Source of the DNA: an uncultured Collinsella sp. | GTDB lineage: Bacteria > Actinomycetota > Coriobacteriia > Coriobacteriales > Coriobacteriaceae | Direction of reading: 5' to 3' | Assembly (NCBI GenBank): GCA_900543645.1 | Contig: UQRZ01000002.1 | Location: 132,969-196,968, forward strand | Length of the DNA stretch: 64,000 nucleotides | Shown: in pieces, positions 4,074 to 37,539 of the stretch | Layout: each line of letters starts with the position of its first letter | Numbering within the stretch: position 1 is the stretch's first letter | Translations under genes and position numbers: made by a program | Notes under the pieces: model-generated | The model's database searches: none | What the model saw: the letters and a program-made list of their open reading frames with translations, nothing else | Told to the model about the DNA's origin: nothing

Positions 4074-4079
4074 AAGGGT

Positions 4080-4751: not shown

Positions 4752-4769
4752 GGTAGTAGCCTTTCTGCA

Positions 4770-5777: not shown

Positions 5778-5786
5778 GACTCTCTC

Positions 5787-7797: not shown

Positions 7798-7807
7798 CTG
7801 CTCTCCT

Positions 7808-17238: not shown

Positions 17239-17267
17239 GGTGCCGCCTTTGACCTTGTGTGCCTATA

Positions 17268-17297
17268 TGAAAAAAGGCCCCAACTTGCGTTGGAGCC
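17268..17297 (-). terminator. Intrinsic terminator after tRNA-Ala copy 1
   Basis: Minus-strand hairpin GGCTCCAAC-GCAA-GTTGGGGCC followed by TTTTTT. Confidence 0.65.
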
Positions 17298-17311
17298 TCA
17301 TTCAATGCTCG

Positions 17312-17386
17312 GGTGGAGACGAGGGGGATCGAACCCCTGACCTCTTGACTGCCAGTCAAGCGCTCTCCCAGCTGAGCTACGCCCCC
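17312..17386 (-). tRNA. tRNA-Ala (anticodon GGC), copy 1
   Basis: GGGGGCGTAGCTCAGCTGGGAGAGCGC... with a G3:U70 pair. Anticodon loop CTGGCAG and T-loop TTCGATC. Confidence 0.9.
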
Positions 17387-17398
17387 GTGCGAAAAAGT

Positions 17399-17427
17399 AC
17401 TATACGGGAACTCGGACGGCGATGCAA
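17399..17427 (-). promoter_or_regulatory. Sigma70-like promoter for tRNA-Ala copy 1 (TTGCAT-17-TATAGT)
   Basis: Minus-strand TTGCAT, a 17-nt spacer and TATAGT, about 12 nt before the tRNA 5' end. Conserved in both cassette copies. Confidence 0.6.
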
Positions 17428-17630
17428 GGACAATTTTGAAAAAAAACTTTCGCGAGTGCCGGCGCGCTCGGGACCGCGCCAACCCGCGGGGCGCCTGGCC
17501 CCCGCACGGCCCGTACGCCGGCCGACTTGGCGCGTGGAACACGACGCACCCCGTTCAACAGGGTTTTCCGTGCGCCTCCAGTCCCATTATCGGGTCCGAT
17601 TGCGAAGCGCCCCTCCCCAGCGCCCCAGAA

Positions 17631-17775
17631 CCATGCCGGTTTACTACGATAAATCAGAAATGTCCGACCATACACGCCTTTTCGTGCAACTGGCGGGCTA
17701 CCTACCTGCGGTTTTGCAAACGGAGAACACACGGTGCTCGGGGGGTCGCCGATTCGTCGTAGTAAACCGGCATGG
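17631..17775. repeat. MITE-like element copy 1: 18-bp perfect terminal inverted repeats (CCATGCCGGTTTACTACG / CGTAGTAAACCGGCATGG)
   Basis: Terminal inverted repeats read directly. Internal CTACCTGCGGTTTT core is shared with copies at 18628-18761 and 50406-50533. Confidence 0.6.
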
Positions 17776-18007
17776 TTTTGAAATGGCATCAGGTTGATTT
17801 CACGCAAAAGTGTGTTGGAGCCCTGAATTAAAGGCCTTAACTTATTTAGATCGCTTCTATTCTGCGACGCGCCTAGATTAGCTGTTGTTTAGCATCGGAC
17901 TTGATCTTGCGTTGTGCGACTTGCTCGTGCATGGTAGTATTTCACAACGTGAAGCGAAGAAATTAGGTCTGAGTTGCCTTTGTTAGAATTGCATTCACCG
18001 TTCATAA

Positions 18008-18121: not shown

Positions 18122-18247
18122 CATTACGGTGATACTAAATTTTTCCCTACATAGACGTGAAACACTTTTAATCATTCCTCTTTGCAATTTAGGATAGATT
18201 TTCGCCAAGCAGCCACTGGGCAAAAGCATATTATTGGCCAATCAAAA

Positions 18248-18277
18248 TGAAAAAAGGCCCCAACTTGCGTTGGAGCC
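18248..18277 (-). terminator. Intrinsic terminator after tRNA-Ala copy 2
   Basis: Identical hairpin plus T-run as copy 1, offset by 980 bp. Confidence 0.65.
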
Positions 18278-18291
18278 TCATTCAATGCTCG

Positions 18292-18366
18292 GGTGGAGAC
18301 GAGGGGGATCGAACCCCTGACCTCTTGACTGCCAGTCAAGCGCTCTCCCAGCTGAGCTACGCCCCC
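18292..18366 (-). tRNA. tRNA-Ala (anticodon GGC), copy 2
   Basis: Identical sequence to copy 1. Sits in a 980-bp-offset direct repeat of the whole cassette. Confidence 0.9.
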
Positions 18367-18378
18367 GTGCGTAGAAGT

Positions 18379-18407
18379 ACTATACGGGAACTCCCCCGCC
18401 GATGCAA
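18379..18407 (-). promoter_or_regulatory. Sigma70-like promoter for tRNA-Ala copy 2 (TTGCAT-17-TATAGT)
   Basis: Same hexamers as copy 1. Confidence 0.6.
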
Positions 18408-18627
18408 GGACAATTTTGGACAATTTTGCGTCGCGTGGAACGGGCGCGGGGCCGAGAGGACCCACGGTACCCGACATAGTCCGCGGGGCTCGGCATGTCG
18501 CCCCAGGTGCCGCCGGCCAGACCAAAGCGATCCGCGGTGCTTCCGGGGACCTGAGCCCTTCCGCACGCCTTCGGACCATTTTCGGAACCGTGCGTAGCTC
18601 GCCCAAGCTGGTCGCTTCATAAACGGA

Positions 18628-18761
18628 CCGGTTTACTACGCCGATTCCCGGATTACTGACCTCACGCCTACTTTTGCAAAACGGGCAGGCGATCTACCTG
18701 CGGTTTTACGAGCGGCGAATTCGGTGTGCTCAACTACTCCCAATCCAACGTAGTAAACCGG
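18628..18761. repeat. MITE-like element copy 2 (terminal inverted repeats CCGGTTTACTACG / CGTAGTAAACCGG)
   Basis: 13-bp perfect terminal inverted repeats. Internal GATCTACCTGCGGTTTT core. Confidence 0.55.
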
Positions 18762-18829
18762 CGTGGTTGTAAAATGGCATTTAATTACTGGCAGCATTTA
18801 AAGTATTAAAAATGCTCAGTTGGGCATTA

Positions 18830-19984
18830 TTACTTACCAATATCAAGCCAATTGCACAGAACGTTGGCCCGCAATCTGGTCTCAGCGCATCTCATCGCTT
18901 CGGTTTTTGGCTTGTAGCGCAACTCTAATCGCTCACACACACTGTGGATGATGGCATCAAGTTGATCGTGATCATTGAGCATGTCATGGGTTACAAGAAA
19001 TACGTCGTATCCCATGCTTTGCAATGCTGTCATTCGGGTGGCATCGTGGTCAAGCACGGCGCCCGACCCATGGATAACCTCTCCTTGAAGTTCGATAATC
19101 ACAGCCTTCATTGTTATTGGATTTACGATGACGATATCGCCGTAACAGATTTTCTGGCCTGCGATTTTCCGAGCTGAATTCGACAGCGGTGTTAAGTCGT
19201 TGACGAATATGTTTTTAAACTCCGCTCCGCCGGCACGCCTCGGATGACTTAGCAACATGATTCCAGCAACTTCTAGCGGGGATGCAGCAATACCTATTAC
19301 CTGCTGTGCGGCTTCGTAGAATTGCTTTCCCCACATCTCGCTTTTAACCTTCGCTGCAAATCTATGCAGTTCTTCTATTTCAATAAGAGGCTTTCTCATC
19401 CAGAGCGATGTGCCCTTTCCGCTAGCATTATTTCCGGATCCGTCATCCTGCTGCCCACTTTGATCATTCTCGCTGTCCTTCTGGTGCGCCCGAGCATAGA
19501 CTCGCTTCCATGGGGCCTCGTCTTGGGTTTCGTCTAGTTCAAACAGACTTTCTATGGTGTACTGCTCCTCATTTGGTTTTGCCTGCTCAAGTGCCATATC
19601 GACCGTGGGCGATGGTTTAAAAATCGAGAACCACCCGCAGAACTCGTACATAGCAAGAACTAGATCGCATGAAGACACGCTTCGAGTCATGGTGAATAGC
19701 GTATTAAGAGGGTCTGTGACGCTAAAGCCCATACCCGTGTCGATGGAAACCTTCTCTGTATAGGCGCTGTTCCATCGGATGGTCCGTCTTGTCTCGGAAT
19801 GCAGGTTACTTCGTGTTGATGCTGCTGTGATGACTGGCGTCTTGAGGACGTCGGTCACGAAAGGGGCTTGGGATAGGGCTCGCCAGCCGTCTTCGGCGTT
19901 GGGTAAGCGCGGGTAGAGGTCGCGCATCTGCGGTGGGCAGCGCCAGTAGCGGAATGCGGTGTTTGCGCAGACAATTTCGTCCAT
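18830..19984 (-). CDS. Hypothetical protein with C-terminal DUF559-like (Vsr/MutH-fold endonuclease) domain
   Basis: C-terminal region (AVIIELQGEVIHGSG...DATRMTALQSMGYDVFLVTHDML) matches the DUF559 pattern. ATG start MDEIV preceded by GGGGGA. AT-rich relative to the core genome. Confidence 0.6.
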   Translation of the reverse strand: MDEIVCANTAFRYWRCPPQMRDLYPRLPNAEDGWRALSQAPFVTDVLKTPVITAASTRSNLHSETRRTIRWNSAYTEKVSIDTGMGFSVTDPLNTLFTMTRSVSSCDLVLAMYEFCGWFSIFKPSPTVDMALEQAKPNEEQYTIESLFELDETQDEAPWKRVYARAHQKDSENDQSGQQDDGSGNNASGKGTSLWMRKPLIEIEELHRFAAKVKSEMWGKQFYEAAQQVIGIAASPLEVAGIMLLSHPRRAGGAEFKNIFVNDLTPLSNSARKIAGQKICYGDIVIVNPITMKAVIIELQGEVIHGSGAVLDHDATRMTALQSMGYDVFLVTHDMLNDHDQLDAIIHSVCERLELRYKPKTEAMRCAETRLRANVLCNWLDIGK

Positions 19985-20323
19985 TTGCGTCCCCCTGATA
20001 TCGGCCGTAGGCCGTGCGAATTGCGGGCATGGCCGATTATCTACCGGGGCATCATGCGGGTAAGTACCGGAAGCAAACCAAAAGCTTGACGAGTTCTGCC
20101 GAAAAACCGTCGTGTGATAGAAATCCGCTGGAAGGCGCTCTGTGCATATGGTCCCTGTCTCCACATTAGAGCTCGGATCACAGGGGGAATTCAATGAAAA
20201 TTCGCATGCGTTTTATACAGAACGGGCAATGTCGTCAGCAAAAAGGGTGCGATAAAAATGACGCCTTAGACGACTACGATTTGATTTTGGTGTCAGTTTT
20301 GGTGTCACCCTTGGTGTCAAAAT

Positions 20324-20366: not shown

Positions 20367-20441
20367 TGGTGGGCGATACAAGATTCGAACTTGTGACCCC
20401 ATCCGTGTGAAGGATATGCTCTACCCCTGAGCCAATCGCCC
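20367..20441 (-). tRNA. tRNA-Val (anticodon CAC), CCA encoded
   Basis: GGGCGATTGGCTCAGGGGTAGAGC... with anticodon loop TTCACAC and T-loop TTCGAAT. Confidence 0.85.
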
Positions 20442-22122: not shown

Positions 22123-22395
22123 TTATAGCTCTATGGATGGAATAGCCCGCGAGTCGTACTCCAGAGCAATCGGCTGCCCCGCATGGGCAATAATATCGCG
22201 CGCGAGCTCGTCGCCCGCCATGCCGCAGACGACGCGAGGCGCACCGCGCTCAAACTGTTTCATCTCAAAAGCGTTCGACAGGATCGCCGTCAATTCGGCT
22301 GGAGTCAGCCCTTGGTCACAGAGAGCAAAATCGACCGCCTCCCCCAGCGTTCTCATGGCATCCTCGAGATACATCTCACCGTAGGCGTGGGTCAT
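22123..22395 (-). CDS. Hypothetical small protein, first gene of the doc operon
   Basis: 90 aa. ATG with GGGGA upstream. Stop 12 nt before the next gene's SD. Confidence 0.4.
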   Translation of the reverse strand: MTHAYGEMYLEDAMRTLGEAVDFALCDQGLTPAELTAILSNAFEMKQFERGAPRVVCGMAGDELARDIIAHAGQPIALEYDSRAIPSIEL

Positions 22396-22439: not shown

Positions 22440-22754
22440 TCAAACGGATTTTTCGGCAAGTAGCTCTCGATACATCGTCCTTGCCGCTACATCTCGCTCC
22501 TTGGCCAATGGACCATACAGAGCTTGTGGCGCACGTTCAAATCCAGCAAAACGAATGCCCTTAAACGCGCGCTCACTTTTAAGCACAATCTGCTCTCCCA
22601 GGTTGCCGAGCCCCATAGATCGATCAAGCTGATCGACGGTAATCGTATTGTTCACAAAGGCTCTAGCATAGGATGGCCAGCAAATAGACGAGGGCATACC
22701 AACATCAGTCGATACGCCCCACATCAGAAGATATGTTTTTCTAGTCTTAAGCAC
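22440..22754 (-). CDS. Hypothetical protein (possibly a gene fragment)
   Basis: 104-aa ORF with GTG start overlapping the stop of the upstream dCD-like gene. AT-rich. No family recognised. Confidence 0.3.
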   Translation of the reverse strand: MLKTRKTYLLMWGVSTDVGMPSSICWPSYARAFVNNTITVDQLDRSMGLGNLGEQIVLKSERAFKGIRFAGFERAPQALYGPLAKERDVAARTMYRELLAEKSV

Positions 22755-23544
22755 AGGCCGCTTGATGCAATGCCAAGTACACCGCTACACCAATACAAAC
22801 GATACCTAATGCAAGAGGCAAGTACGCCTTCTTGTCTTTGTCCTTAACAAGGAAGGCTTCGATTGCGGATGCTAGGACCAGAAAACCGCCAATAATCAGC
22901 AGATCGAGTGCAACAAAGTTGACGGTTGTTATATTGGAGGACAGACCTCCGGCGTTGACGTTTACGAGCGTAAAGATCGCAGCGAAAATGGCGAAGAGGG
23001 CCAGGACGTTGCCATAGATACGGGACTCGATATTGACGATTTCTTCCTTCTTGTTCTCGACCTTTTTAAGTTCCCCGGCATATACGTCGGAATAATCTGC
23101 AAGTCCGTTAAAGTTGAGCTCATCAGAGAAAGCGCCGTGGTAAGGATGGGCTACCATGCCATCAACGCGCTGGAATGCAACCTGCGCTATACCCTTAGAC
23201 GTATCGAGCGTAATAGTGTTGCCGCTTACGTTTGTAACACGGTAAAACAGCCGTGTTCCATGTCCGGGGAAATATAGCGGCGCGTCCAAAGAAAGCCCCT
23301 GGCGAATGCGCGAATTGCGCAGAAGTACGCTAGCGGTCAAATTGTTTGGCAACGCTACACATTCAACGCAAGAGACGAATGTCGAATCCCCAGGACCGAG
23401 TTCGACCTCGGACTGCTTGTTCTCGTTAATGTAGAAGCCGTCGGTGCGCAAGTCATACGTAACCTGTCCGATGTTCGAAGCATCGGCATGGAGCAGAACC
23501 TCGCTGTCGATTAGCTCCTGAATCTTAGTATCGCTCAAGTACAT
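22747..23544 (-). CDS. dCTP deaminase/dUTPase-superfamily domain protein fused to C-terminal transmembrane helices
   Basis: N-terminus MYLSDTKIQELIDSEVLL... and LLRNSRIRQGLSL resemble the Dcd core (xRSSLARxGL). C-terminal 90 aa form about 3 hydrophobic helices. ATG with AAGGAAG SD. Confidence 0.55.
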   Translation of the reverse strand: MYLSDTKIQELIDSEVLLHADASNIGQVTYDLRTDGFYINENKQSEVELGPGDSTFVSCVECVALPNNLTASVLLRNSRIRQGLSLDAPLYFPGHGTRLFYRVTNVSGNTITLDTSKGIAQVAFQRVDGMVAHPYHGAFSDELNFNGLADYSDVYAGELKKVENKKEEIVNIESRIYGNVLALFAIFAAIFTLVNVNAGGLSSNITTVNFVALDLLIIGGFLVLASAIEAFLVKDKDKKAYLPLALGIVCIGVAVYLALHQAACA

Positions 23545-23690
23545 ATGAACCACTTCCTTAGGGTCCGAGTATAGCACCAAGGTATGGCACGGTGGTTACC
23601 CCCAAAGGTGGTACAGAGAAGTAATAAGAAAGCGTTGCCCTTAAAGCTCCTACAGAGCTCTTGTATCGCAGCCAAGTGCGTCGCGCCGCA

Positions 23691-24997: not shown

Positions 24998-26788
24998 TCA
25001 CATATATACACCGGAATCAGTTGAAATATCCTGCGCCCTTTCATTTAACGTTGCTATTGTCTGCTTGATGTCATTGCGAATCCATTTGGTCCTCAGTCCG
25101 CCCATGCGAGATTTGGACCCCACTTTGACAAGTTGAGTGTCAATCATTTTTAACCATTCAACGGCTTCATTCAGGCTATGCTTGTCTGCATAACTCTTCA
25201 TGCCGGTATGAAAAAATAAATGCAGGGAATTTTGTGAATCGGCGGTTCCTTCATAGGTTGCCATGGCAACAGTTTCAGCTGGTACATTCAGTATTCTATT
25301 TTGGTTCTCTGATTTTATGGCTTTTTCAAAAAACGCAGAGATTGTTTTACCTGTGTTCTGGTCAACTATAGAAAACTCAAGACTGATGCGATTTAAATCT
25401 CGATCTCTTTCATCTTGTTCAACCTCAGTTATAAGTTTGTCCATTATGAGATTGGCATCTGTACCATAAAAATCATTCATATTATCTCGTTCTTGCCTCA
25501 AAGCGGCAGCGTCGCACTTGGGGTCATGATTGGCGGCATGCCGAAGCGAATCGAGAAGCTTCTCGCGAAAAGATTCATCCCAGAACCCAAGAATAATAAG
25601 ATCGAGTGAATGTCTAATAATCTTATAAAACCATACTTGAGAATACTGTCCCTTAGCTAGCATGTTTTTAAGATGGTTCGCGAGCAATTCAACCTGACCG
25701 TCTTCCAAGCTCCGTAAAGCGCCCCAATGGTATTCCATTTCTTGGGCCTCGACATCTGCGGCAGAATTGGGATTTTTCTCTAGTACAAATTTATTGAAAG
25801 AACTCTTAACAGTTTCTGGGTCTACATCCTTCCCTTCAGTTAATGGAGCAAGGGCCTTTGATAAAGTAAGATAATAATCGTATTCCTGGAGTTCAGACTC
25901 GTCGAAAATGCTCATTGAGCTATTCGCGTCTTTTGGCTCATTAGGAACTATTCCTGCTGATGCTTGAACTGCATATCCAACAAAATCTGAGAACGCTTGT
26001 ACTCTTCCATGAAAATCTATGGACTCATCGACAAGAGCCGACGAGCTTAATACGTAGTTTATACACGGGATTGATCTCGATAGAGCTCTTGCGTTGATAA
26101 GGGAGTCCTTAAGTCCGTCGATAACTGCATCCTTGACTTTGAAGTCAATCTGTTCGGGAATGGATAACTGGTCCTTTACTATTGCCCGGTAAAGCACCTG
26201 TAGATCTGGCTCATACTCAATTTGGCTAATAACCGCTTTTTCTATAGAGCAGTCATCCTCAAAAGACAGTGGCTGATTTCTGACAAGCATCACATGCCAG
26301 CCATGATTTTCGACCATATTGTTAACAAACCCAAGAAATGAGCGGTCATCATGAGCGAAGCTGCTACGTTCGCAATCGTCCAATATCACGAGAACTTTAT
26401 TCATTCCAATCAAAGATAGTAATAAGTCAGGTTTAATGGAAACCTGAATTCCAATTTTTGCTAGCCGCTTGCTTGCAATTGACTTACTAACGTCAATTGC
26501 GCCTTTCTTAAAAACATTTTTTGTGGCATCAATGCGCTTCGTTGAGTTTTCAGAAAAATGAAGCCAAGAGGCTAGAACCCTATTGCAAATCTCGTCATAA
26601 TCGGAAACGCCGAATAGCGATACACGGCATACCTTTATACCTAATTCCTTAAGCGCAGGCTTAAGATCGTTCTCGCAATAATACGTCTTCCCCGAACCCC
26701 ATTCGCCATGCAGGACTAAAGCTTGAAGGCCAATGGTGTCACATTGCATGTATTTTTTAATTGTCTCGGTGATTTCTTTGGCATGCAT
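24998..26788 (-). CDS. KAP-family P-loop NTPase
   Basis: About 596 aa with Walker A LHGEWGSGKT near the N-terminus and Walker B VLVILDDCE. KAP-like size. No obvious TM insertions. ATG with GGAG upstream (ORF-track M is TTG). AT-rich. Confidence 0.6.
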   Translation of the reverse strand: MHAKEITETIKKYMQCDTIGLQALVLHGEWGSGKTYYCENDLKPALKELGIKVCRVSLFGVSDYDEICNRVLASWLHFSENSTKRIDATKNVFKKGAIDVSKSIASKRLAKIGIQVSIKPDLLLSLIGMNKVLVILDDCERSSFAHDDRSFLGFVNNMVENHGWHVMLVRNQPLSFEDDCSIEKAVISQIEYEPDLQVLYRAIVKDQLSIPEQIDFKVKDAVIDGLKDSLINARALSRSIPCINYVLSSSALVDESIDFHGRVQAFSDFVGYAVQASAGIVPNEPKDANSSMSIFDESELQEYDYYLTLSKALAPLTEGKDVDPETVKSSFNKFVLEKNPNSAADVEAQEMEYHWGALRSLEDGQVELLANHLKNMLAKGQYSQVWFYKIIRHSLDLIILGFWDESFREKLLDSLRHAANHDPKCDAAALRQERDNMNDFYGTDANLIMDKLITEVEQDERDRDLNRISLEFSIVDQNTGKTISAFFEKAIKSENQNRILNVPAETVAMATYEGTADSQNSLHLFFHTGMKSYADKHSLNEAVEWLKMIDTQLVKVGSKSRMGGLRTKWIRNDIKQTIATLNERAQDISTDSGVYM

Positions 26789-26941
26789 CGCTTTGTTCTC
26801 CAATCGACTGTATTTCGCTTTGCATTGTTAAGTCAAGTGTTTTTTAGCGACCACGTCTCTAAAAATTTTTATTTTGCCTCATGCTAGCTAGTGTTCAACT
26901 CGTGACCGTGGTATCTGATATTGTATTTTCGAGTTAACTAA

Positions 26942-27051: not shown

Positions 27052-27444
27052 CTAGCCCCGCTTAAACATACCCCTCGTGTACACCTTGTCCGCAACGTCC
27101 GCGAGCTCGTCGCTCCAGCGGTTGGCGACGATCACGTCGCAGCCGGCCTTGAAGGCCTCCAGGTCGTGGGTCACCTCGGAGCCGAAGAACTCCGGCGCGT
27201 CCAGCGTGGGCTCGTAGACCACCACGGGCACGCCCTTGGCCTTCACGCGCTTCATGACGCCCTGGATGGAGCTCGCGCGGAAGTTGTCGGAGTTGGACTT
27301 CATCGTCAGGCGGTAGACGCCCACGACCGGCCTCTCCTTGCCCTCGTACACGCGGTCCCACACCATCTGCAGCACCTCGTCGGCCACGAAGTCCTTGCGG
27401 GTGCGGTTGGCGTCCACGATGGCCTCGATCAGGTTCTGGGGCAC
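27052..27444 (-). pseudogene. ugd: UDP-glucose 6-dehydrogenase 3' fragment (C-terminal 130 codons only)
   Basis: Matches the UDP-glucose/GDP-mannose dehydrogenase C-terminal domain (IQGVMKR...VVVYEP...ANRWSDEL...KVYTRGMF). 5' part replaced by AT-rich DNA. Confidence 0.7.
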
Positions 27445-27622: not shown

Positions 27623-28390
27623 TTATCCAGCCTTATCTCCGCTTATGCCATTCGCCCATTCCCACCGAAGAACATAGCGATGCCCAATTATTGGTTTATC
27701 TATCGCCACTATCCAAATACTAGAAGCAACACTTTCGATTGTCAGATTTGAGACGAAACGATACTCAAGTTGTCCTAACCCACTTCTCTTCTTCATTTCT
27801 TCGGCGCTCAAGCTCGATTCATTAATGACATTTGGTATAGCACTTGCATCTAAGCATAGCGTCAAAGATTTACAAGGCCTTAGAACGACAAACGAATAAA
27901 ACGGTTTAAGGGAGTAAATTGGATCAAAGTGGTTGAATTCTAGAACGTACGAAAATTCCTCGCCACGCTCTCTGCCGAATAGATTGTACAAATAATATGG
28001 CTGTACCATACCTCTTGATGGATTAGGCTGAGGAGTGAACAATTCAACGCCATCGCCGTCAACCAGCTGCGGTGATGATGATGTACCGCCACCGCTCCAA
28101 TCATACAAACCGCCAATAAAATCCACCTTAGATTTGAGCAATCTTTCTTTAACACAAACTGTCGATTGAAACTGCCCCGCAGGAAAGAGTTTTAGCGTCA
28201 TTTTTCGATCGACTGTCAGAACTTGATAGCCAAGTGGGTGGCTGCGCAACCAATTAGCAGCCGCAGTTATTAAAAACAAAAGAAGCAGAGCGCCAGAAAA
28301 AAAAATGTTATCGAAGTAGATTTGGAATAACCCAGTGCAGACCATCGCAAGTACGCAAGTAAAAAGCTCTTTTACTAAGCCATCCTTCAT
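27623..28390 (-). CDS. Hypothetical membrane protein (two N-terminal TM helices plus soluble domain)
   Basis: 255 aa, AT-rich. TM1/TM2 in the first 60 aa. No family recognised. Confidence 0.45.
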   Translation of the reverse strand: MKDGLVKELFTCVLAMVCTGLFQIYFDNIFFSGALLLLFLITAAANWLRSHPLGYQVLTVDRKMTLKLFPAGQFQSTVCVKERLLKSKVDFIGGLYDWSGGGTSSSPQLVDGDGVELFTPQPNPSRGMVQPYYLYNLFGRERGEEFSYVLEFNHFDPIYSLKPFYSFVVLRPCKSLTLCLDASAIPNVINESSLSAEEMKKRSGLGQLEYRFVSNLTIESVASSIWIVAIDKPIIGHRYVLRWEWANGISGDKAG

Positions 28391-28992: not shown

Positions 28993-29184
28993 TCCTTTCC
29001 TCCTTTATAGAACGTTATTTAGTCATGATGTTTGCGACAGCAAATAGTTCTAGATACGTGTCATTAGTATAAGGCGCACATCCTTCGCATCGCCAGGCGA
29101 ACTAAATCAAGGTCCTAACAGAAATGAAGGGTATGAGGCAAAGAAATCTATAGCAAACACGCAAAGAAACAAATATCGCGACTA

Positions 29185-29320
29185 GTCCCGCTTAAACAGA
29201 TCCCTCGTGTAGACCTTGTCCGCCACGTCCGCGAGCTCGTCGCTCCAGCGGTTGGCAATGACAACGTCGCAGCAGGCCTTAAAGGCCTCCAGGTCGAGGG
29301 TCACCTCTGTTGATGTTCAC
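29185..29320 (-). pseudogene. ugd: Second ugd 3' remnant (about 42 codons), about 88% identical to 27055-27190
   Basis: Direct repeat of the ugd C-terminal coding sequence. Reading frame ends where the IS-like sequence begins. Confidence 0.6.
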
Positions 29321-29790: not shown

Positions 29791-31512
29791 TCAGCAATCA
29801 AGCAATGCATTCATAGAGCTCCACAAAGCATCCAATAGGTTATCAGCAGATTCTTTCGTCAAGCCCTTCGCAAAGAGATACACCTTGAGCTTAGGCTCAG
29901 TACCACTTGGACGAACAAGCACACGAGACCCGTTCGAGAGTCTCCACTCAAGCACGTTGCTCGGCGGTAGTATTTGAACGGGCTCGTCAGCTAGCGAATT
30001 CACCATTGGCATAGGCGCTCCCGCTTTGTAGTCAATCACATGGTCAACTGTCAAGTTGGCGATCTCGGTAGGAGCTCCCGCGCGAAATCTGTCCATAAGC
30101 GCAGTCATTCGCTCGGCACCGTCGACACCCTCGAAAGCTCTCGTTAACTGCTTGCCAGACCACCAGCCGTAGCGGTCATACAAGCGCGCCATGGCATCGA
30201 CCAGATCAAGCCCATCGGCCTTCAGGTCCGCGGCCATCTCGCACACGAGCATACACGCTTCGATGCCGTCTTTATCGCGCACGTGCGTTCCAGACAGATA
30301 CCCAAGGCTCTCTTCAAGGCCGAACAGGAAATCGCCCCGTCGACCATCCCGCTCAAGGAGCCCGATTTGCTCACCGGTGAATTTAAAACCCGTCAACGTG
30401 CGTCTGAGCTCTAAGCCATACCCATTTGCCACATCATCAGCCATGGGCGTTGAAACAATCGTGGTGACAGCAACTTTTCGGTCAAGCCCTCCCCTCGAAG
30501 CAGCCCGTCGAGCAAGCCAGTCCAGCAATAACACGCCAACCTGATTACCCGATAGCGTTATATATTCACCGCCATGGCGAACAACAACTCCCACTCGGTC
30601 AGCATCGGGATCCGTCGCCAAGGCAAGATCGCATCTCTCTCGGCTCGCGAGATCAATAACAGCCTCCATGGTCTGCGGAACCTCGGGGTTAGGCTTAGGA
30701 CACGTTGGGAAGTCACCGTTCGGCTCGGCCTGTTCCGCAACGACATGAAATGCTCCCATACCCATATTGCCAAGCACGCGCTGCACACACACAAGGCCGG
30801 CACCGTTGAGCGGAGTATACGCGACTGATAGGTCACTGCAATCAATGCCCTGCGAGCACGAGAGCGTAGAGTTGACATAACGGTCTAAGACATCTCCACT
30901 GGCCCACGCAGTCAAACCAGATTCAATTACCGCATCGAAAGGCTCCGCGCAAACATCGTCAAAAATATCAACCGAATCGATGGCAGCCTGAATTTGCCGG
31001 CACATCTCTGTTGTCGCCTGGCAGCCATCGGGTCCGTAGACCTTGAATCCGTTGTACTCAGCCGGATTATGCGAGGCGGTAACGACAATGCCCGCCGAGC
31101 AGCCGAGGTCTCGGACAGCGAACGAAAGAACTGGCGTGGGAGAGGGATGCCCGAATACCACGGAGCGAATTCCGTTTGCAGCGAGCACCTCAGCGGCACG
31201 ACGAACGAATTCCGGGCCGCCGTGGCGCGAATCCCGTGCAATAACAACCAGCGGTTCATCAACCTGCGAGTTGAGCCAATTGGCGAGACCCTGAGTAGCC
31301 TTACCCACCGTCCACACATTCAACCGGTTAGGGCCCATACCAATCTTAGCGCGCAAGCCACCCGTACCGAAATGGAGGTCACGAGCGAACGCGTCCTTTA
31401 GAAGCTGAGGATTAGACGCGAGGGCATTCAGAGCCTCCCGATCCTCATTACCGTCCATCGCTTCCAGCCAGCGATCAAATTCGTTTTCGATTGATACGTC
31501 GTTCACCGTCAT
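29791..31512 (-). CDS. Phospho-sugar mutase (phosphoglucomutase/phosphomannomutase family)
   Basis: 573 aa. Active-site TASHNPAEYNG and a metal-binding DPDADR loop. Confidence 0.85.
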   Translation of the reverse strand: MTVNDVSIENEFDRWLEAMDGNEDREALNALASNPQLLKDAFARDLHFGTGGLRAKIGMGPNRLNVWTVGKATQGLANWLNSQVDEPLVVIARDSRHGGPEFVRRAAEVLAANGIRSVVFGHPSPTPVLSFAVRDLGCSAGIVVTASHNPAEYNGFKVYGPDGCQATTEMCRQIQAAIDSVDIFDDVCAEPFDAVIESGLTAWASGDVLDRYVNSTLSCSQGIDCSDLSVAYTPLNGAGLVCVQRVLGNMGMGAFHVVAEQAEPNGDFPTCPKPNPEVPQTMEAVIDLASRERCDLALATDPDADRVGVVVRHGGEYITLSGNQVGVLLLDWLARRAASRGGLDRKVAVTTIVSTPMADDVANGYGLELRRTLTGFKFTGEQIGLLERDGRRGDFLFGLEESLGYLSGTHVRDKDGIEACMLVCEMAADLKADGLDLVDAMARLYDRYGWWSGKQLTRAFEGVDGAERMTALMDRFRAGAPTEIANLTVDHVIDYKAGAPMPMVNSLADEPVQILPPSNVLEWRLSNGSRVLVRPSGTEPKLKVYLFAKGLTKESADNLLDALWSSMNALLDC

Positions 31513-31562
31513 TCCCCCGTCGATGAGTCCATAACCCTAATTGCTTACAAGATGCGAAGAGC

Positions 31563-32549
31563 TTATACCTCTATGAAAATCTCACCGATTTCCTTGCGGT
31601 GACTATACGGAACCATCGTGCAATCCGGGTAGTAACCGGCACCCAAGACAACCGCGATGCGCTCGCTGTCCTTAAGGTTCAGCAGCTTGGAAATAGCCGC
31701 CTCCTCGGCACCGGTATTCCCCCACTGTAGGAAACACGACCCGATTCCCTTGAAGTGGAGAGCGTCGGCGAACCTCATGGCAACAAGGCCCGCATTTAAA
31801 TAGCCCTGATTACGCTCTCCGTAAAAGGTGAACGCGTTGAGATCGAACGTCACGACAAAGAGCGTGACGGCGTCCTTGTCAAACCCACCAAGGCCCATAA
31901 TCGCATCTTTGAGCTTGGACGCCTTTGCCTGATCGGTAACCTCGAGAATCTTAATCATCTGCCTGTTGCAGGCGGTAGGCGCATACCGAGCCGCTTCCAC
32001 GCAATCAAGAACATCGTCGCGCTTCAAGGGCACGCGCTTAAATTCACGAACAGAATGACGATCTTTGATAACGGTCGTGAAATCATCAATGCGATGCGCC
32101 GTCGCATCTTGAAGCGTGTATTCATGAGCGCCGACAGGGACCGGTTCGAAAGAGGCCGGAATCGTCTTCAGGAACTCGTTCACGGCTTTATAGCCGTCTT
32201 CCTGCTGCCAGCCATGCTTATCAAACAGGTCTTTCCAAACCAAAAGAATGCTGACGCCCATCTCATACGCCGTCGATACCTTCTGGTTCTCGGAATACGT
32301 CTTCAAATAATCAATCAGCTCTCGCACCTTCTTCTTGCCGAAGGGACGAAGGCCCTGAGAGCACATGCCCTTTTCCAAGCTGTGAACAATCAGAAGCACG
32401 TGATAATCAACACACGCGTGATCCGACATCGACTCCGCGTAGTTGGCGACGAATCGATTCGCATCGGTACGCATCTCCCTGCGAACCTTATGTGCCTTCA
32501 CAACCCTACGCAGGGCATCAATTGATTGCAGCTGCTCCTTAACGGACAT
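31563..32549 (-). CDS. Nitroreductase-family protein with about 150-aa N-terminal extension
   Basis: C-terminal half shows the nitroreductase pattern (RHSVREF...APTACNRQ). N-terminal domain unassigned. Sits inside the polysaccharide locus. Confidence 0.6.
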   Translation of the reverse strand: MSVKEQLQSIDALRRVVKAHKVRREMRTDANRFVANYAESMSDHACVDYHVLLIVHSLEKGMCSQGLRPFGKKKVRELIDYLKTYSENQKVSTAYEMGVSILLVWKDLFDKHGWQQEDGYKAVNEFLKTIPASFEPVPVGAHEYTLQDATAHRIDDFTTVIKDRHSVREFKRVPLKRDDVLDCVEAARYAPTACNRQMIKILEVTDQAKASKLKDAIMGLGGFDKDAVTLFVVTFDLNAFTFYGERNQGYLNAGLVAMRFADALHFKGIGSCFLQWGNTGAEEAAISKLLNLKDSERIAVVLGAGYYPDCTMVPYSHRKEIGEIFIEV

Positions 32550-34026
32550 TCTTTTTTCTCCTTACGATTGAAAGGCCAAATTCGAATAGCGTTTTGTCAA
32601 ATACATGCGCCCAAAGCACCGTCAAAGGAATGAACAGAATCGAACCGACAAAAAGCTGAAGGATCAACGTCAAAACCGAGATACCAAATACCCGTTGGAC
32701 TAGTAATGCCGGAAGTGCACTTGCAAGTCCAATCAGGTAGTACGGCACGCTGGCAAGCACTGCCTTTGAGTAATCGAATCGTGACCTCAAACGGAAATAT
32801 TGATAAAGCGGAACGAAGCTTTCAGCCACTAGGGACGCTATAGCCGCACCCAACGCAGCCAAACGAGGAATCAGCAATACATTGATAAGCACGTTCAAAA
32901 TACTGCTGATAAGAGTGGACTTCACATAGATGTCATCAATTTTGCTCGGAATGATGTACTGCATTCTGATGACATTGCCTAACCCCATGGCAATTAGAGC
33001 AAAACCGGACAGACGCAAGATGTTGGCGCTTTGGCTGAACTCAGCACCAAACAAGAGATCAATCAAACTGTCTGCAACTGCGAACAAGCAAAACGCCATC
33101 ATCGAGGTCATTATTGCCATGAGCCTTAGGGAGAGGGAGATATAGTGCTCGATTTTCGCCGAGTCCCCCTCAGCCACCAATTTCGACATCTTCGGCATCA
33201 TGACTGAACCGAAAGAAGCAATCAGGCCTGACAGGCAGTAGACGATTTTCTCTCCATTATCAAAAATACCTGTCTGAACCATGGTGCTCATCGCACCCAG
33301 CATCACTCTGTTCAACGACCGATATACATTCAAAGCAAGCGTTGGGATTAGCAACAACGAGCAGGGAAAGAGGTGCTCTTTGAAGTCCAACAGATACTGA
33401 GGAAGGATTCGTACACGCTTCCTCAGTCCTATCCAGTTCGTAAGATAGCCGCACACATATCCGCTCACCATGATCAATGCGTACAGCGGCGTGTCGCTCT
33501 TCGTTTTCACGAACAGGAAAATCCCGGCGACGCTCAGCAGCTTGACCGTAATATTCCTGATGGAAACACGCCGAAAGTCCTCGAGGCCAAACCAAAACCA
33601 ATCGATATCCGAAAAGGTGCCGACCACCCAAATCAGAAACACCAAGGCCATGATGAAATGTTCAGAGGAAAAGCAGAATGCGTAAATGGCATAGCAAATC
33701 GAAATCAAAACCGTCGAGCAGCACTGAAGTCCAAAAAGACGCGAGAACAGCTGATTCAACGCATCCTGATTGCCACGTACTTTGGCGATTTCCCGCGTTC
33801 CATAATTGGTAAGCCCGAGCTTGGCAATAAGAATCACGAATTGCGCGATGGAAAACGAATACGCGTATATTCCAGTACCCTCAGCGCCGATGATTCGAGC
33901 AAGATATGGTGCCGTCACAAGCGGCAATCCCATATTCAGAATCGAATACGCTGAGTTATAGATAAAGTTCTTTTTTGTGCCTACTGCCATAGAGCTAATC
34001 CTGAACACATTTCTCGAGATAGCCAA
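32539..34026 (-). CDS. wzx: Oligosaccharide flippase (Wzx, MOP superfamily)
   Basis: 495 aa with about 12-14 TM segments. AT-rich. Confidence 0.75.
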   Translation of the reverse strand: MAISRNVFRISSMAVGTKKNFIYNSAYSILNMGLPLVTAPYLARIIGAEGTGIYAYSFSIAQFVILIAKLGLTNYGTREIAKVRGNQDALNQLFSRLFGLQCCSTVLISICYAIYAFCFSSEHFIMALVFLIWVVGTFSDIDWFWFGLEDFRRVSIRNITVKLLSVAGIFLFVKTKSDTPLYALIMVSGYVCGYLTNWIGLRKRVRILPQYLLDFKEHLFPCSLLLIPTLALNVYRSLNRVMLGAMSTMVQTGIFDNGEKIVYCLSGLIASFGSVMMPKMSKLVAEGDSAKIEHYISLSLRLMAIMTSMMAFCLFAVADSLIDLLFGAEFSQSANILRLSGFALIAMGLGNVIRMQYIIPSKIDDIYVKSTLISSILNVLINVLLIPRLAALGAAIASLVAESFVPLYQYFRLRSRFDYSKAVLASVPYYLIGLASALPALLVQRVFGISVLTLILQLFVGSILFIPLTVLWAHVFDKTLFEFGLSIVRRKKNVR

Positions 34027-35041
34027 TAGAGCTGGCTCTCAACTCGCTGAATTTACTTTCAACCGAGGTGTAATCAATATCCTCGTTGAGAACGGCTTCG
34101 ATTCCCGCACCGACAATTCGCTGATCCAACGCAAGGTCATGCAGCAAGTTCTCAATCTTTTTCTTTTGATAGTCAAGAACGACAAACCGCTTATGGAAAA
34201 TCAACGAGAACACCGTACCGTGGAAGGTGTTGGTGACAACAGCTGATGCGCCATTAAAGCAGGAAAGAAAAGAAACGACGGTCGATTCATAATGCATATC
34301 AGCGAACGGCATACGGCGACCAAGTGACACTATTTTCAAGCTGTTATCGGCTGCATACTGTTTGATCTCGTCGACCACCGCAGCTGAAGGCGTATCGAAC
34401 AGATACAGTAGAAGATAGGTGCCCGCTTCTTCCATTGACCTACAGAATCCCTGATAAAAACTTCGATCCTTCAAGAGCGTGGGGTCGCACACCTTGCACG
34501 GTACCCGATCCGTCCGAGAAGTGATGTACTCGAGGGAACAGTCATCCCTAACGCTGATGTTCGCGTACTTCTTTATGGACTCACATGGATACTTCAGCGA
34601 ATCCAACGTTTCATAGGGCGAATTCGCGATTGAGGCTGCATAGGTAACGATCTTAGAACCATCCCATGGCAATCCCCAGAAGACATCCTGGGACTCCAAG
34701 AAATATGGCGACGTTACATCCCAAACGGTATCGCTGCCAATGGAAAGCAAATCAAAGCGTTCAGCTCCACTAGGATCGACGATGTGAAAATGTTCACGAA
34801 TGAACTGCCGGGAATCTCGATACTTTTTAATAACGGCTCCTGGACTTGACCTAGACACCAAAGCCTTTATAACGTCCTTGAATTCCTTCTTGTAAGAAAG
34901 CGCTGAGAGCTTATTGATCGTAGAGATGAATGACACATTGCATCCAAGCTTGCTGTACGCATCCTGCATCGCAAGCGCTTGAAGCACGCTTCCGCAATTG
35001 GTGCTATATATGACTGTAATGATTCCGACGCTATGCTTCAT
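33995..35041 (-). CDS. Polysaccharide pyruvyl transferase (CsaB/WcaK family), paralog 1
   Basis: 348 aa. Pyruvyl transferase pattern including NTFHGTVFSL. Confidence 0.7.
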   Translation of the reverse strand: MKHSVGIITVIYSTNCGSVLQALAMQDAYSKLGCNVSFISTINKLSALSYKKEFKDVIKALVSRSSPGAVIKKYRDSRQFIREHFHIVDPSGAERFDLLSIGSDTVWDVTSPYFLESQDVFWGLPWDGSKIVTYAASIANSPYETLDSLKYPCESIKKYANISVRDDCSLEYITSRTDRVPCKVCDPTLLKDRSFYQGFCRSMEEAGTYLLLYLFDTPSAAVVDEIKQYAADNSLKIVSLGRRMPFADMHYESTVVSFLSCFNGASAVVTNTFHGTVFSLIFHKRFVVLDYQKKKIENLLHDLALDQRIVGAGIEAVLNEDIDYTSVESKFSELRASSIGYLEKCVQD

Positions 35042-35057
35042 GAGCTCATCGGCCTCC

Positions 35058-36320
35058 TTATCGCTTGCTTAAATAGGGTTTTCGATTTTCCGCACCCTCA
35101 GGAATGTCAACGGTCTCTGAGCTATCCATAGCCTTCTCTTGAGAAACGTTCATGCACATAACCGCAAGATAGAAAGTTACCCAAACACTGAAATAATCAA
35201 GAATATGCGATGTAATGGCAACGAAGACGAGATACAGCATCATAAAGAAATGCCAATAGTTCTTCTTTGAGAATTCCACAATGCCGAAAGCGAAAGATGC
35301 GATTCCCAGAAATCCCGTTTCCAAGTAGATGCCGATAGTGTCGTTGTGAAGAATACCGTTCCACACAGTACCGAAATGCGATGAAGCGTACCCGGCTAGA
35401 TAGTAATTAATCGAACCATAGCCATTAAAGTCGCCAGACATACCCGATATGGCAAGATGATAGATGGTTGGACGGCCAGTCATCTCAGCGTTAAGGTCAA
35501 TTCCAAAGGAGCTATACAGCCATCCCATCACGTCATACCTGTAAAGCCACATCAGAACGAATGGGCTCAGAACTATCGCAACCATAACGAGCACACGATA
35601 GACGCGTTTCACATCACCCTTAGGCACGCGACTCGACAAGACAAATGCAACCGGGGCGAGAATGAAACTAAGGCGCTTCATCGAAAGCATACAGAAAAGA
35701 AAGCAAATAAAGGCCTTTCCTTTCTGCTTCATCGCCAGAAAGAGCATCTCCATGATTAGAAAGTCATGAGCAAGAGAGGATTCGGTCGCCGCCTCGGAAT
35801 CAAACCAGTTTATTGAGAGAATGCTACTTAAGGACAGCTTGTCAGCATTCATAAAAAGAAAATGACAGCAGAATCTGACCAAGAGGATGTTGAAGTAATA
35901 GTTCCAATCCTCTTCATCGACCGAATTAGCAAATAGCAGGGCATTGATAATCGGCAAACCAAGGCGTCCAAGCGCAGAGAACAGGAACCCTCGTAACCCA
36001 TCATGCATAATCTGAATTGGAATTGAGATGGCTCCAAAAACGACGATAAAGAAAAGTATGTAACCGGCATACTGAAATCCGCGTTTTTTAGCGGTGCCTC
36101 TATATACAAAGATAATGCCGTTGGCAGCACAAAAGAGCAGCAAAGTAGCCATATATAGGGCCTGTGACGCATACCCCAGCATGTAGGCAACATAAAGCAG
36201 GTTGTAGAGAATGAACAACAGGAACCTAAACCCCGACTTAGGAAGAAGCGGGGTGTTCAAAGCTCTCTGAATAATACTTGTCATCGTATTCATATTCGTA
36301 TTGCGAATCACGCTAGCCAA
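35058..36320 (-). CDS. wzy: O-antigen/polysaccharide polymerase (Wzy-like, O-antigen ligase family)
   Basis: 420 aa with about 10-12 TM helices and a large periplasmic loop. Confidence 0.65.
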   Translation of the reverse strand: MASVIRNTNMNTMTSIIQRALNTPLLPKSGFRFLLFILYNLLYVAYMLGYASQALYMATLLLFCAANGIIFVYRGTAKKRGFQYAGYILFFIVVFGAISIPIQIMHDGLRGFLFSALGRLGLPIINALLFANSVDEEDWNYYFNILLVRFCCHFLFMNADKLSLSSILSINWFDSEAATESSLAHDFLIMEMLFLAMKQKGKAFICFLFCMLSMKRLSFILAPVAFVLSSRVPKGDVKRVYRVLVMVAIVLSPFVLMWLYRYDVMGWLYSSFGIDLNAEMTGRPTIYHLAISGMSGDFNGYGSINYYLAGYASSHFGTVWNGILHNDTIGIYLETGFLGIASFAFGIVEFSKKNYWHFFMMLYLVFVAITSHILDYFSVWVTFYLAVMCMNVSQEKAMDSSETVDIPEGAENRKPYLSKR

Positions 36321-37434: not shown

Positions 37435-37539
37435 TAGATTCCCTTCCCTCATTTCGTTTTTAAGCCGAATGATAACGACCTATGATTAGTGGATTGTTAA
37501 ACGCTGCGAATACCATCAATGCAGCCACAGCAATCGTTT

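Follow-up and report, generated by a model that had tools for sequence, protein, structure and literature searches.

The Dcd/dUTPase fold is among the best understood nucleotide-binding folds. Its closest described representatives for the gene considered here are the dCTP deaminases (Dcd) and DCD-DUT enzymes, with structures from E. coli (1xs1), M. tuberculosis (2qxx/4a6a), B. halodurans (4xjc), and M. jannaschii (1ogh), and the archaeal Dcd-type dUTPases of Thermococcus pacificus (8y1w) and 'P45' (9ln0). dCTP deaminases are soluble proteins of ~170–195 residues encoded in a stable housekeeping setting, and the archaeal dUTPases are soluble enzymes of 155 residues. The C-terminal arm of the fold contacts the phosphates. 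Non-enzymatic uses of the fold, by the staphylococcal phage Dut that de-represses Stl of SaPI and by herpesvirus dUTPase-related proteins, provide a precedent for a nucleotide-dependent switch operated through the mobile arm. A different group of proteins, the ligand-gated effectors of antiviral systems (the 2TM and SAVED-TM effectors of CBASS, the TM effectors of Pycsar, the CARF-TM and CorA effectors of type III CRISPR, and SLATT), is characterized by a cytoplasmic nucleotide-binding head, few membrane helices, and a location in defense islands or prophages. Here, we describe a gene whose product has features of both groups. It lies on the minus strand of a 64,000-nucleotide stretch of DNA from an uncultured Collinsella sp. 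(contig UQRZ01000002.1, positions 132,969–196,968; the whole stretch is referred to as the window, and all coordinates are numbered from its first letter), and encodes a Dcd/dUTPase-fold head followed by three predicted membrane helices. We propose that the gene is a horizontally mobile single-gene conflict module, and that its likeliest role would be abortive infection or superinfection exclusion by means of a membrane effector under the control of a nucleotide-sensing trimer. We assign this reading a probability of roughly 0.4; its defensive component is drawn from genomic context.

The gene runs from an ATG at position 23544 to a stop codon at 22747–22749 and encodes 265 amino acids, in agreement with the extent given in a first-pass annotation of this DNA. 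The list of open reading frames (ORFs) begins the same frame at TTG 23580, giving 277 residues, but we dismissed this start because a ribosome-binding-site-like AAGGAAG lies 8 nucleotides before ATG 23544 and all homologs begin with M-x-L-(S/V)-D. By exact-sequence look-up, the protein is identical to WP_118256045.1, a 'hypothetical protein' of Collinsella sp. AF02-46-1, and the same sequence is present on 341 contigs. Over the gene, the window is 100% identical to Collinsella genomes.

The N-terminal domain does have the Dcd/dUTPase fold. The protein matches the Pfam family DCD (PF22769) with 34.9 bits against a gathering score of 27, and PHROG 1663, 'dCTP deaminase', with an E-value of 2e-13; PF00692, the trimeric dUTPase family, was absent from the results of the Pfam scan. 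A family profile constructed from 62 diverse members, which share 25–52% identity with the window protein, finds the T. pacificus dUTPase (8y1w, E 2e-18), the B. halodurans DCD-DUT (4xjc, E 1e-15), and the M. tuberculosis DCD-DUT (4a6a, E 1e-13) in the PDB. The AlphaFold monomer model has block-mean confidence (pLDDT) values of ~84–95 across residues 1–130, and the top Foldseek matches of the head model are DCD-DUT, archaeal dUTPases, and E. coli Dcd, with E-values of 3e-12 to 1e-9 against DCD-DUT and Dcd, TM-scores to the target of up to 0.81, and a root-mean-square deviation (rmsd) of 1.9 Å. The archaeal Dcd-type dUTPases are the best matches overall, at TM-scores to the target of 0.79–0.81 and an rmsd of ~2 Å. 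A profile comparison with E. coli Dcd by hhalign gives a probability of 97%; the E. coli sequence used agrees in its length and in residues S111, R115, H121, and E138 with the names of the PDB mutants. The window protein contains the motifs MYLSDTKI, LGPGDS, LRNSRIRQGLSL, and PGHGTRLFYRVTN, and the similarity to Dcd that the first-pass annotation had noticed by eye, together with the motifs it quoted, is thus confirmed by each of these methods. In common with Dcd and DCD-DUT, the protein has the N-terminal M-x-L-x-D-x-x-I helix, the YDL motif, the Glu in the strand 'E-x-(I/V)-x-LP', the R-x-G-L Arg (Arg115 in E. coli), the PG turn, the Asn of 'xxN', and the PY-x-G motif of the arm.

What sets the head apart from the known enzymes is the chemistry of its pocket. 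In the residue alignments, Asn77 takes the place of E. coli Ser111, the catalytic Ser of G-R-S-S, and is an Asn in 61 of the 62 members. Phe92 aligns with Asp128, which is the Asp of 'DPG' and the water-activating residue of dUTPase motif III; 35 members have Gln and 17 have Phe at this position, and in none is it Asp. Arg102 aligns with E. coli Glu138 (M. jannaschii Glu145) and with the Glu of TLELxN in 4xjc and 4a6a, and is Arg in 59 members. Arg81, on the other hand, corresponds to E. coli Arg115 and is kept, and His95 occupies the position of the sugar-stacking aromatic Trp131. All three canonical catalytic residues of Dcd and dUTPase (Ser, Glu, and Asp) are therefore replaced, and deamination or dUTP hydrolysis of the canonical kind is unlikely for this reason. 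The absence of the catalytic Glu had already been pointed out in the first-pass annotation, which missed the substitutions at positions 77 and 92. The archaeal Dcd-type dUTPases also lack the deaminase Glu, but have Met rather than Arg at this position, and they keep the Asp of 'DPG(W)' and the Ser-Ser pair, which dUTP hydrolysis requires, as well as the arm sequence Y-x-G-N-Y-Q-G; none of the three is retained in the present family. Phage Duts likewise keep their catalytic residues.

The same annotation had called the domain 'non-canonical or inactive', and it is the first of these terms that fits the data. Conservation among the 62 members is 98% for N77, 92% for S78, 98% for R81, 97% for Y91, 100% for P93, 95% for each of H95, T97, and R102, and 100% for N105, and continues into the arm with 98% for Y135, 81% for F139, and 95% for E142. 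Among 45 Collinsella alleles with a synonymous divergence (dS) of ~0.73, the ratio of nonsynonymous to synonymous substitution rates (dN/dS) is 0.074 for the whole gene and 0.064 for the head. A pocket set that is 95–100% conserved at 25–52% identity, together with a dN/dS of ~0.06, argues that the replacements do not reflect decay, and that the head is functional, in a non-canonical manner.

These observations bear directly on two enzymatic explanations. A conventional housekeeping dCTP deaminase or dUTPase with an incidental membrane attachment would account for the Pfam DCD match, and the source record of the C. intestinalis homolog indeed names it dCTP deaminase; other family members are annotated as either 'hypothetical' or dCTP deaminase. 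However, the equivalog models score far below their cut-offs (NCBIfam TIGR02274, dCTP deaminase, EC 3.5.4.13: 48.7 bits against 92.8; NF002598, dUTPase: 21 bits against 130), the catalytic Ser, Glu, and Asp are replaced, and the gene is patchily distributed, mobile, and of foreign composition. None of the loci examined has a pyrimidine- or nucleotide-metabolism context. We consider the housekeeping explanation already effectively refuted and the dCTP deaminase label of family members a misannotation. The second explanation, the main rival of our reading and one that keeps the defensive role, is that the head is an active but non-canonical enzyme, such as a pyrophosphatase or deaminase, tethered to the membrane and possibly directed at a phage-modified pyrimidine deoxynucleoside triphosphate (dNTP), which depletes or sanitizes the nucleotide pool while the helices mainly serve for localization or regulation. 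The near-invariant polar pocket (N77, S78, R81, Y91, H95, T97, R102, and E142) could form a new active site, and attack on the nucleotide pool is an established defense strategy (review PMC13276650). Nevertheless, we regard this explanation as unlikely, given that the residues responsible for chemistry in Dcd, DCD-DUT, and Dcd-type dUTPases are all replaced. Moreover, where the aligned Dcd-type chains have Y-x-G-(K/N)-Y, the arm of the window protein reads P-Y-x-G-A-F-S-D-E, such that the Lys/Asn, Tyr, and Gln of the arm have given way to Ala/Ser/Thr, Phe, and an acidic pair, a change that would disfavor triphosphate binding.

The C-terminal part of the protein speaks against a purely enzymatic role as well. 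The ~120 residues that the protein has in addition to the Dcd and DCD-DUT enzymes form a predicted stalk and three membrane helices, where the archaeal dUTPases, phage Dut, and the herpesvirus proteins are soluble and devoid of membrane helices. Hydropathy delineates three hydrophobic segments (residues 175–202, 204–235, and 239–265), and the AlphaFold model contains helices at 156–202 (the stalk and the first transmembrane helix, TM1, without a break), 207–232, and 238–264, preceded by an arm (residues 137–152) that is modeled as flexible with pLDDT below 50. The loop following TM1 is uncharged and that between TM2 and TM3 reads KDKDKK; on account of these charges, the head and N-terminus are predicted to be cytoplasmic and the C-terminus to lie outside. 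TM1 is the best-conserved segment of the protein, with a mean frequency of the top residue of 0.59 compared to 0.51 for the head and 0.26 for TM3, the least conserved one. It carries conserved polar residues (Y177 in 94%, N179 in 82%, and N197 in 81% of members), and position 214 in TM2 is Asn in 85% and Asp in 6%. The dN/dS of TM1, 0.019, is also the lowest in the protein. Because of its conservation, its polar residues, and its dN/dS, TM1 is more than a passive anchor. The three helices proposed in the first-pass annotation are thus supported, as is the notion that such a fusion is not a housekeeping arrangement, the architecture being conserved in mobile and defense-type neighborhoods; the description of the helices as a mere anchor does not agree with TM1 being the most constrained segment. 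Nor is it explained by an enzyme with a localization tag why TM1 should be more conserved than the head. Two long relatives have a weak PG_binding_1-like extension past TM3, which scores below the Pfam cut-off; this extension, predicted to be extracellular, fits a C-terminus on the outside, but is only suggestive.

Taken together, these features enable us to propose a model for how the protein might work. The head would adopt the trimeric Dcd/dUTPase fold and retain the scaffold of a pyrimidine-nucleotide pocket, comprising the equivalent of Arg115, the PG turn, an aromatic residue or His above the sugar, and the PY-x-G arm. With Ser111 changed to Asn, Glu138 to Arg, and Asp128 to Phe or Gln, and all three acid/base residues therefore lacking, it may bind a nucleotide-like ligand or a phage factor without turnover. 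In the Dcd/dUTPase fold, the flexible C-terminal arm shuts over the pocket of the adjacent subunit upon ligand binding, and in the present protein this arm is predicted to run unbroken into the stalk helix and TM1. Ligand-dependent ordering of the arm would then re-pack a bundle of nine membrane helices (three from each of three subunits), and the re-packed bundle would permeabilize or depolarize the membrane and thereby stop phage development. The data themselves show the fold, the replaced residues and their conservation across the family, the topology signals, the mobility of the single gene, and its location in accessory slots and defense islands. The central elements of the model are inferred from these: that the head forms a trimer, that it binds but does not convert its ligand, that binding is passed on to the helices, that the membrane is damaged as a result, and that phages are thereby warded off.

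The family is large and under strong purifying selection, with constraint on both the head and TM1. An exhaustive profile search returned 2,554 proteins at E ≤ 1e-3, and those at E ≤ 1e-30 fall into 152 clusters at 50% identity, nearly all consisting of proteins of 255–280 residues with full-length matches; a word-indexed search gave 251 clusters at 90% identity. The hosts named in the records are Collinsella, other Coriobacteriia, Olsenella, Bifidobacterium, and, in one record, an Acutalibacteraceae member, while more distant relatives are low-GC, Firmicutes-like sequences. Searches by tblastn of 50,697 GenBank phage records and 72,556 plasmids gave no family match, apart from one weak Dcd-like match in an Agrobacterium plasmid, and all members known to date come from uncultured prophages and metagenome-assembled genomes. 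A fold search of BFVD returned only soluble phage and viral Dcd/dUTPases, with no helix-fused analogue among the top 50. One variant architecture, restricted to a single cluster (P0257, 285 residues), consists of the head fused to a HicB-like antitoxin domain (Pfam E 4e-9). In a prophage locus (L111, 7001–8083), the head-and-helices gene is directly followed by hicA, and the HicB fusion may have arisen by a deletion where the gene adjoins HicAB.

A more widespread relative is found in a sister clade (P0226/P0298/P0315), where the same head occurs without membrane helices and is instead followed by a C-terminal domain of ~140 residues. The sister heads keep the motifs RNSRIRQGL, PxYQPGHxT, (F/Y)xR(L/V)TN, and Y-N-G-A-F-Q-x-E, and the protein is present on more than 100 contigs. 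The profile of the C-terminal domain matches Rcl/DNPH1 (E 1.3e-4) over the Y-E-L-G motif with the catalytic Glu; its model is most similar to DNPH1 and nucleoside 2'-deoxyribosyltransferases (Foldseek E 4e-5, TM-score to target ≤0.73), and the PADLOC model 'Effector', described as 'TIR', matches it with an E-value of 2.5e-5. Judging from the names of PDB entries, DNPH1 acts on deoxynucleoside monophosphates (dNMPs) such as 5-hydroxymethyl-dUMP. The sister gene is part of a four-gene cassette (L114–L117, ~2690–8930) that encodes an unknown protein of 1211 residues (620 in one variant), SLATT_1, DUF4062, and the head–DNPH1 fusion, and that is flanked by resolvase, IS110, and MobA genes. SLATT is a predicted membrane-permeabilizing effector of antiviral systems and adjoins TIR genes in Firmicute phages (PMC9503650). 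Comparison by hhalign of the helix-bearing family with the SLATT protein of the cassette indicates no relation (probability 0.2%). The cassette appears to be an undescribed candidate conflict system, and a head that is combined with either a membrane module or an N-glycosidase module looks like the 'constant sensor, swappable effector' arrangement of conflict systems. The fusion and its link to SLATT and DUF4062 hint that pyrimidine deoxynucleotides, possibly modified, are the currency of the system. A more specific version would have the head act as a receptor or specialized hydrolase for non-canonical pyrimidine deoxynucleotides (such as dUTP, 5-hydroxymethyl-dUTP, or 5-hydroxymethyl-dCTP) that arise only during replication of a phage with modified DNA, making it a sensor of a foreign nucleotide pool with interchangeable outputs, such that the three-helix form collapses the membrane in abortive infection and the DNPH1 form destroys the modified nucleotide; we find this version improbable. 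At the same time, an N-glycosidase similar to DNPH1 and nucleoside 2'-deoxyribosyltransferases would be a natural second step after a reaction that converts dNTPs to dNMPs, and in this respect the sister fusion favors the active-enzyme explanation discussed above.

Prophages and viral contigs of no fewer than eight backbone types carry the gene where the early or regulatory region ends, just upstream of the genes for the small terminase subunit, HNH, or portal proteins. Prophage copies often directly follow a late-regulator-like gene that weakly matches PHROG 36 or 79. IMG/VR phages with a matching regulator and matching downstream genes do without the gene, and in one of them (L118) the flanks are 96–100% identical. 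In such sister phages, the slot contains IrrE/Peptidase_M78 (L118), HicA with a helix-turn-helix antitoxin (L119), or essentially nothing (L120 and L122). Since sister phages with matching flanks lack it, the gene is dispensable cargo in a phage accessory hotspot. In the gut actinobacterial prophage lineage concerned (L016/L118–L123), the slot has been located in L016 to positions 7900–8992, between the regulator gene (7414–7899) and a downstream pair of genes encoding a 72-residue protein and an HNH protein.

This distribution raises the question of whether the phage, and not the host, benefits from the protein, for example as an anti-defense sponge that captures a nucleotide or second messenger at the membrane, as a regulator of lysis timing, or as a membrane factor of the lytic cycle, with the chromosomal copies being prophage remnants. 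Most of the diverse homologs are found in prophages, co-oriented with early or late genes, after the late-regulator-like gene and before the terminase. Slots of this kind carry anti-defense genes, and in one locus (L012) a Lar-like restriction-alleviation gene is adjacent; in addition, class I holins with three helices exist. Several findings make us rate a phage-serving role as rather unlikely. Near-identical phages do without the gene, which therefore is no core lytic function, and the gene never adjoins an endolysin, no endolysin-type Pfam family being found within ~7–8 kb in any phage locus examined. Unlike holins, the protein also has a 170-residue cytoplasmic head. Described nucleotide and second-messenger sponges are soluble proteins. 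One prophage copy is situated at the very end of the prophage, adjoining an integrase-like gene, a 530-residue SIR2_2 gene, and a cI-like repressor gene, a position that is typical of genes expressed in the lysogen. Finally, the chromosomal non-prophage locus in Collinsella has been kept across dozens of species-level genomes (dS ~0.73, dN/dS 0.07), which argues for a benefit to the host.

The Collinsella locus has a fixed place between a gene for an LPXTG protein and a gene pair encoding DUF3825 and restriction-endonuclease (REase)-like proteins, close to a tRNA cluster. The direct neighbors vary, with 16 neighbor pairs in 64 Collinsella loci, and the cargo of the island includes a retron-type reverse transcriptase–protease (PADLOC RT-Protease_XI, E 2e-105), AbiLi/AbiLii, AbiH, Abi_2, the KAP-like NTPase PDC-S49, nucleotidyltransferase genes, and Doc. 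A recognized defense family lies within 6 kb in 19 of the 48 Collinsella loci of at least 8 kb, as a raw fraction. The composition of the gene is foreign: its GC content is 49.7% in a genome of ~62–66%, and the stretch of the window from 17 to 43 kb is a mosaic of 41–60%. In C. intestinalis, the gene is located between genes for a TPR protein with a faint STAND-NTPase match and an HD protein, in surroundings with an OLD-like ATPase, a KAP NTPase, an AAA_21 ATPase, Phd/ParE, and several transposases. To search for partners, we took all ORFs lying no more than 1.2 kb from the gene in non-Collinsella loci and clustered them. No conserved partner gene emerged across at least 12 distinct contexts; the only recurring neighbors are the phage late-regulator-like gene and the HNH gene within one related phage group, and these also flank the empty slot of phages lacking the gene. 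The survey of homolog neighborhoods suggested in the first-pass annotation hence points to mobile-element and defense-type contexts rather than to pyrimidine metabolism.

The proposed mode of action resembles that of the ligand-gated CBASS, Pycsar, and type III CRISPR effectors, but the protein is not one of them. Its gene has no linked cyclase or signal synthase (no CD-NTase, pyrimidine cyclase, Cas10, or TIR/SMODS gene is consistently adjacent in the at least 12 contexts), and its putative sensor has the Dcd fold rather than a SAVED, CARF, or cNMP-binding fold. Its helices show no significant profile similarity to the membrane modules of CBASS, CRISPR, or SLATT, and only the sister clade lacking membrane helices is linked to SLATT and DUF4062. 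The defensive dCTP deaminase and AvcD are reportedly zinc-dependent enzymes of the cytidine/dCMP-deaminase fold with a P-loop kinase-like domain. With the dCTP deaminase of Tal et al. 2022 and AvcD, the present protein shares the name and the general idea of pyrimidine dNTP chemistry directed against phages, but not the fold, and the precedent of nucleotide-depleting dCTP deaminases that the first-pass annotation invoked is accordingly an analogy by name only. We found no significant match to the defensive dCTP deaminase in PADLOC, assuming that its model is among the 5027 searched. The 'dUTPase' domain of DefensePredictor was considered as well, but is part of another predicted system, with a MazG-C kinase and an aGPT-pyrophosphorylase. 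The Dcd/dUTPase fold has not been reported before as the sensor in a gene combining a sensor with a membrane effector, and the gene matches no described defense family.

A number of observations weigh against our proposal of a nucleotide-gated defense module. Defense genes are present within 6 kb in only ~40% of the Collinsella loci, two homologs are insertions flanked by insertion sequences in exopolysaccharide (EPS) or capsule loci, a context that is not obviously defensive, and one more lies beside a transposase among housekeeping genes. Phage accessory slots hold anti-defense genes and other morons too, and context cannot fix the direction of function. The loss of the canonical residues is compatible with new catalysis, given the conservation of H95, R102, N77, T97, and E142, and a two-step nucleotide-degrading enzyme is an equally good reading of the head–DNPH1 fusion. 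In addition, literature searches found no paper describing a Dcd/dUTPase-like head with membrane helices, and the 5027 PADLOC models, searched with E-values up to 10, gave no significant match to either the window protein or the 62 relatives. The SAVED_TM and 2TM models reach E-values of 0.035–0.066 with the window protein, and CorA-like models match 7 and 4 of the 62 members (best E 7e-4); we set these sporadic matches aside, as they are best explained by membrane-helix composition.

The EPS loci also suggest another possibility, namely that the protein is an accessory of the envelope or surface polysaccharide that binds a nucleotide-activated precursor at the membrane, with the prophage copies acting as serotype or receptor converters. 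Apart from the two diverged homologs inside EPS/capsule loci, which contain genes for a Wzz-type kinase, DUF4012, EpsG, and a flippase, a further homolog adjoins a sugar epimerase gene, an EPS locus begins ~6 kb away in the window, and the weak PG_binding_1-like extension of the two long members is predicted to be extracellular. Yet, the gene in these EPS loci is flanked by transposases and by intergenic gaps of 0.5–0.9 kb, outside the operons, the protein has no glycosyltransferase or other sugar-handling fold, and most contexts are without polysaccharide genes. EPS loci are general recombination hotspots, and the association of the homologs with them may be a coincidence of two such hotspots. 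We consider a role in polysaccharide biology very improbable.

If our preferred reading, a ligand-sensing head that gates a membrane effector, is correct, it would provide a new sensor fold for bacterial immunity, in which a ligand-operated C-terminal lid is wired straight to a membrane module, in a family that is large (~150 clusters at 50% identity) and frequently encountered in Actinobacteria and Firmicutes of the human gut as well as in their prophages. Should the ligand turn out to be a modified dNTP, the dUTPase/Dcd fold would have its first use in immunity, and modified dNTPs their first pattern-recognition receptor. Even without a defensive role, correcting the misannotation matters for metabolic reconstructions of Collinsella. 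The features of the gene are listed in Table 1.

Table 1. Coordinates in the window of the gene, its protein segments, and adjacent signals
Feature	Position	Strand	Basis
Complete coding sequence, 265 aa + stop	22747..23544	-	ORF list; ribosome-binding site; homolog N-termini
Shine-Dalgarno-like AAGGAAG, 8 nt upstream of ATG	23553..23559	-	Direct reading of upstream sequence
Dcd/dUTPase-fold beta-barrel head, residues 1-135	23140..23544	-	Pfam; profile vs PDB; AlphaFold (AF2) model; Foldseek; hhalign
Altered pocket segment, residues 76-105 (RNSRIRQGLSLDAPLYFPGHGTRLFYRVTN)	23230..23319	-	Residue alignments and frequencies in 62 members
C-terminal arm and predicted stalk helix, residues 136-174	23023..23139	-	Arm motif PY-x-G-x-F-x-(D/N)-E; conservation; model
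Predicted TM1, residues 175-198 (RIYGNVLALFAIFAAIFTLVNVNA)	22951..23022	-	Hydropathy; conservation; dN/dS
Predicted TM2, residues 207-232, with conserved Asn/Asp at 214	22849..22926	-	Hydropathy; model helix 207-232
Predicted TM3, residues 240-262, after KDKDKK loop (predicted cytoplasmic)	22759..22827	-	Hydropathy; loop charges; model helix 238-264
Terminator-like hairpin, 13-bp stem, 27 nt past stop, weak T-tail	22691..22720	-	Consensus scan

The consensus scan for terminators returned 5 sites in the region compared to 1.3 expected, and the assignment of the hairpin as the terminator of the gene is suggestive only. Regarding the neighbors in the window, the first-pass annotation had placed the gene in an 'AT-rich island' together with a KAP NTPase, an LPXTG protein, and a Doc toxin operon. 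The low GC content holds for the gene itself and for the KAP-like gene, but the immediate neighbors (the LPXTG protein, Doc, and DUF3825 genes) have 62–64%. The identities of the neighbors stand: Fic/Doc is confirmed by a domain match, and an LPKTG sorting signal is present in the translation of the LPXTG protein. The KAP-like gene (24998–26803, minus strand), which at 41.6% GC is the most foreign of the neighborhood, encodes a P-loop protein of 601 residues that matches Pfam KAP_NTPase only marginally (19.1 bits against 20), and the PADLOC candidate single-gene defense family PDC-S49 with an E-value of 4.7e-23. An operon of the studied gene with the KAP, LPXTG, or Doc genes was dismissed because the neighbors differ between Collinsella genomes and the surroundings of the gene in other hosts are altogether different, and the implied functional partnership falls with it.

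Two short minus-strand ORFs separate the gene from the Doc operon. The first (22123–22395, 90 residues) is an internally deleted copy of a 229-residue HTH_3 protein that is intact in other Collinsella, and the second (22440–22754, 104 residues) encodes a truncated DUF3990 protein and has an 8-nucleotide overlap with the stop of the studied gene; together they look like a degraded two-gene module. The pair most commonly found upstream of the gene in Collinsella (e.g., L076 4751–5341 and L069 3174–3698) encodes proteins of 196 and 174 residues and constitutes an unannotated two-gene module in the island. The former has two N-terminal hydrophobic helices and a GIY-YIG-like motif, seen by eye only, and the latter has only a weak Bles03-like match. 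At the edge of the island, a 454-residue protein (18830–20194, minus strand, 51% GC) is conserved in Collinsella (cluster c3), its C-terminus giving only a weak match to REase_MTES_1575, a DUF559-like endonuclease.

The tRNA cluster that borders the variable island contains a segmental duplication of ~1 kb with tRNA-Ala(GGC), represented by 177-nucleotide copies at 17267–17443 and 18247–18423 that are 95% identical and by a second, equally spaced repeat of 41 nucleotides at 17749–17789 and 18740–18780. A tRNA-Met lies between the duplicated copies, and tRNA-Val is found at 20367–20441. On the other side of the gene, a direct repeat of 126 nucleotides (27052–27177 and 29182–29307, 90% identity) matches the 3' end of a UDP-glucose-dehydrogenase-like gene and flanks a low-GC insert of ~2.1 kb, with 27052–27444 being a C-terminal gene fragment. 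The insert contains an ORF (27623–28390, 255 residues, 42.6% GC) for a membrane-like protein without a Pfam or PADLOC match, and looks like an insertion that duplicated the end of the UDP-glucose-dehydrogenase-like gene. It is followed by the surface-polysaccharide locus of the window (29791–42000, minus strand, 45–56% GC), which includes genes for a phosphoglucomutase, a nitroreductase-like protein, a Wzx-type flippase, two pyruvyl transferases, a Wzy-like polymerase, a hexapeptide acyltransferase, GT4, WecG/TagA, and ManC.

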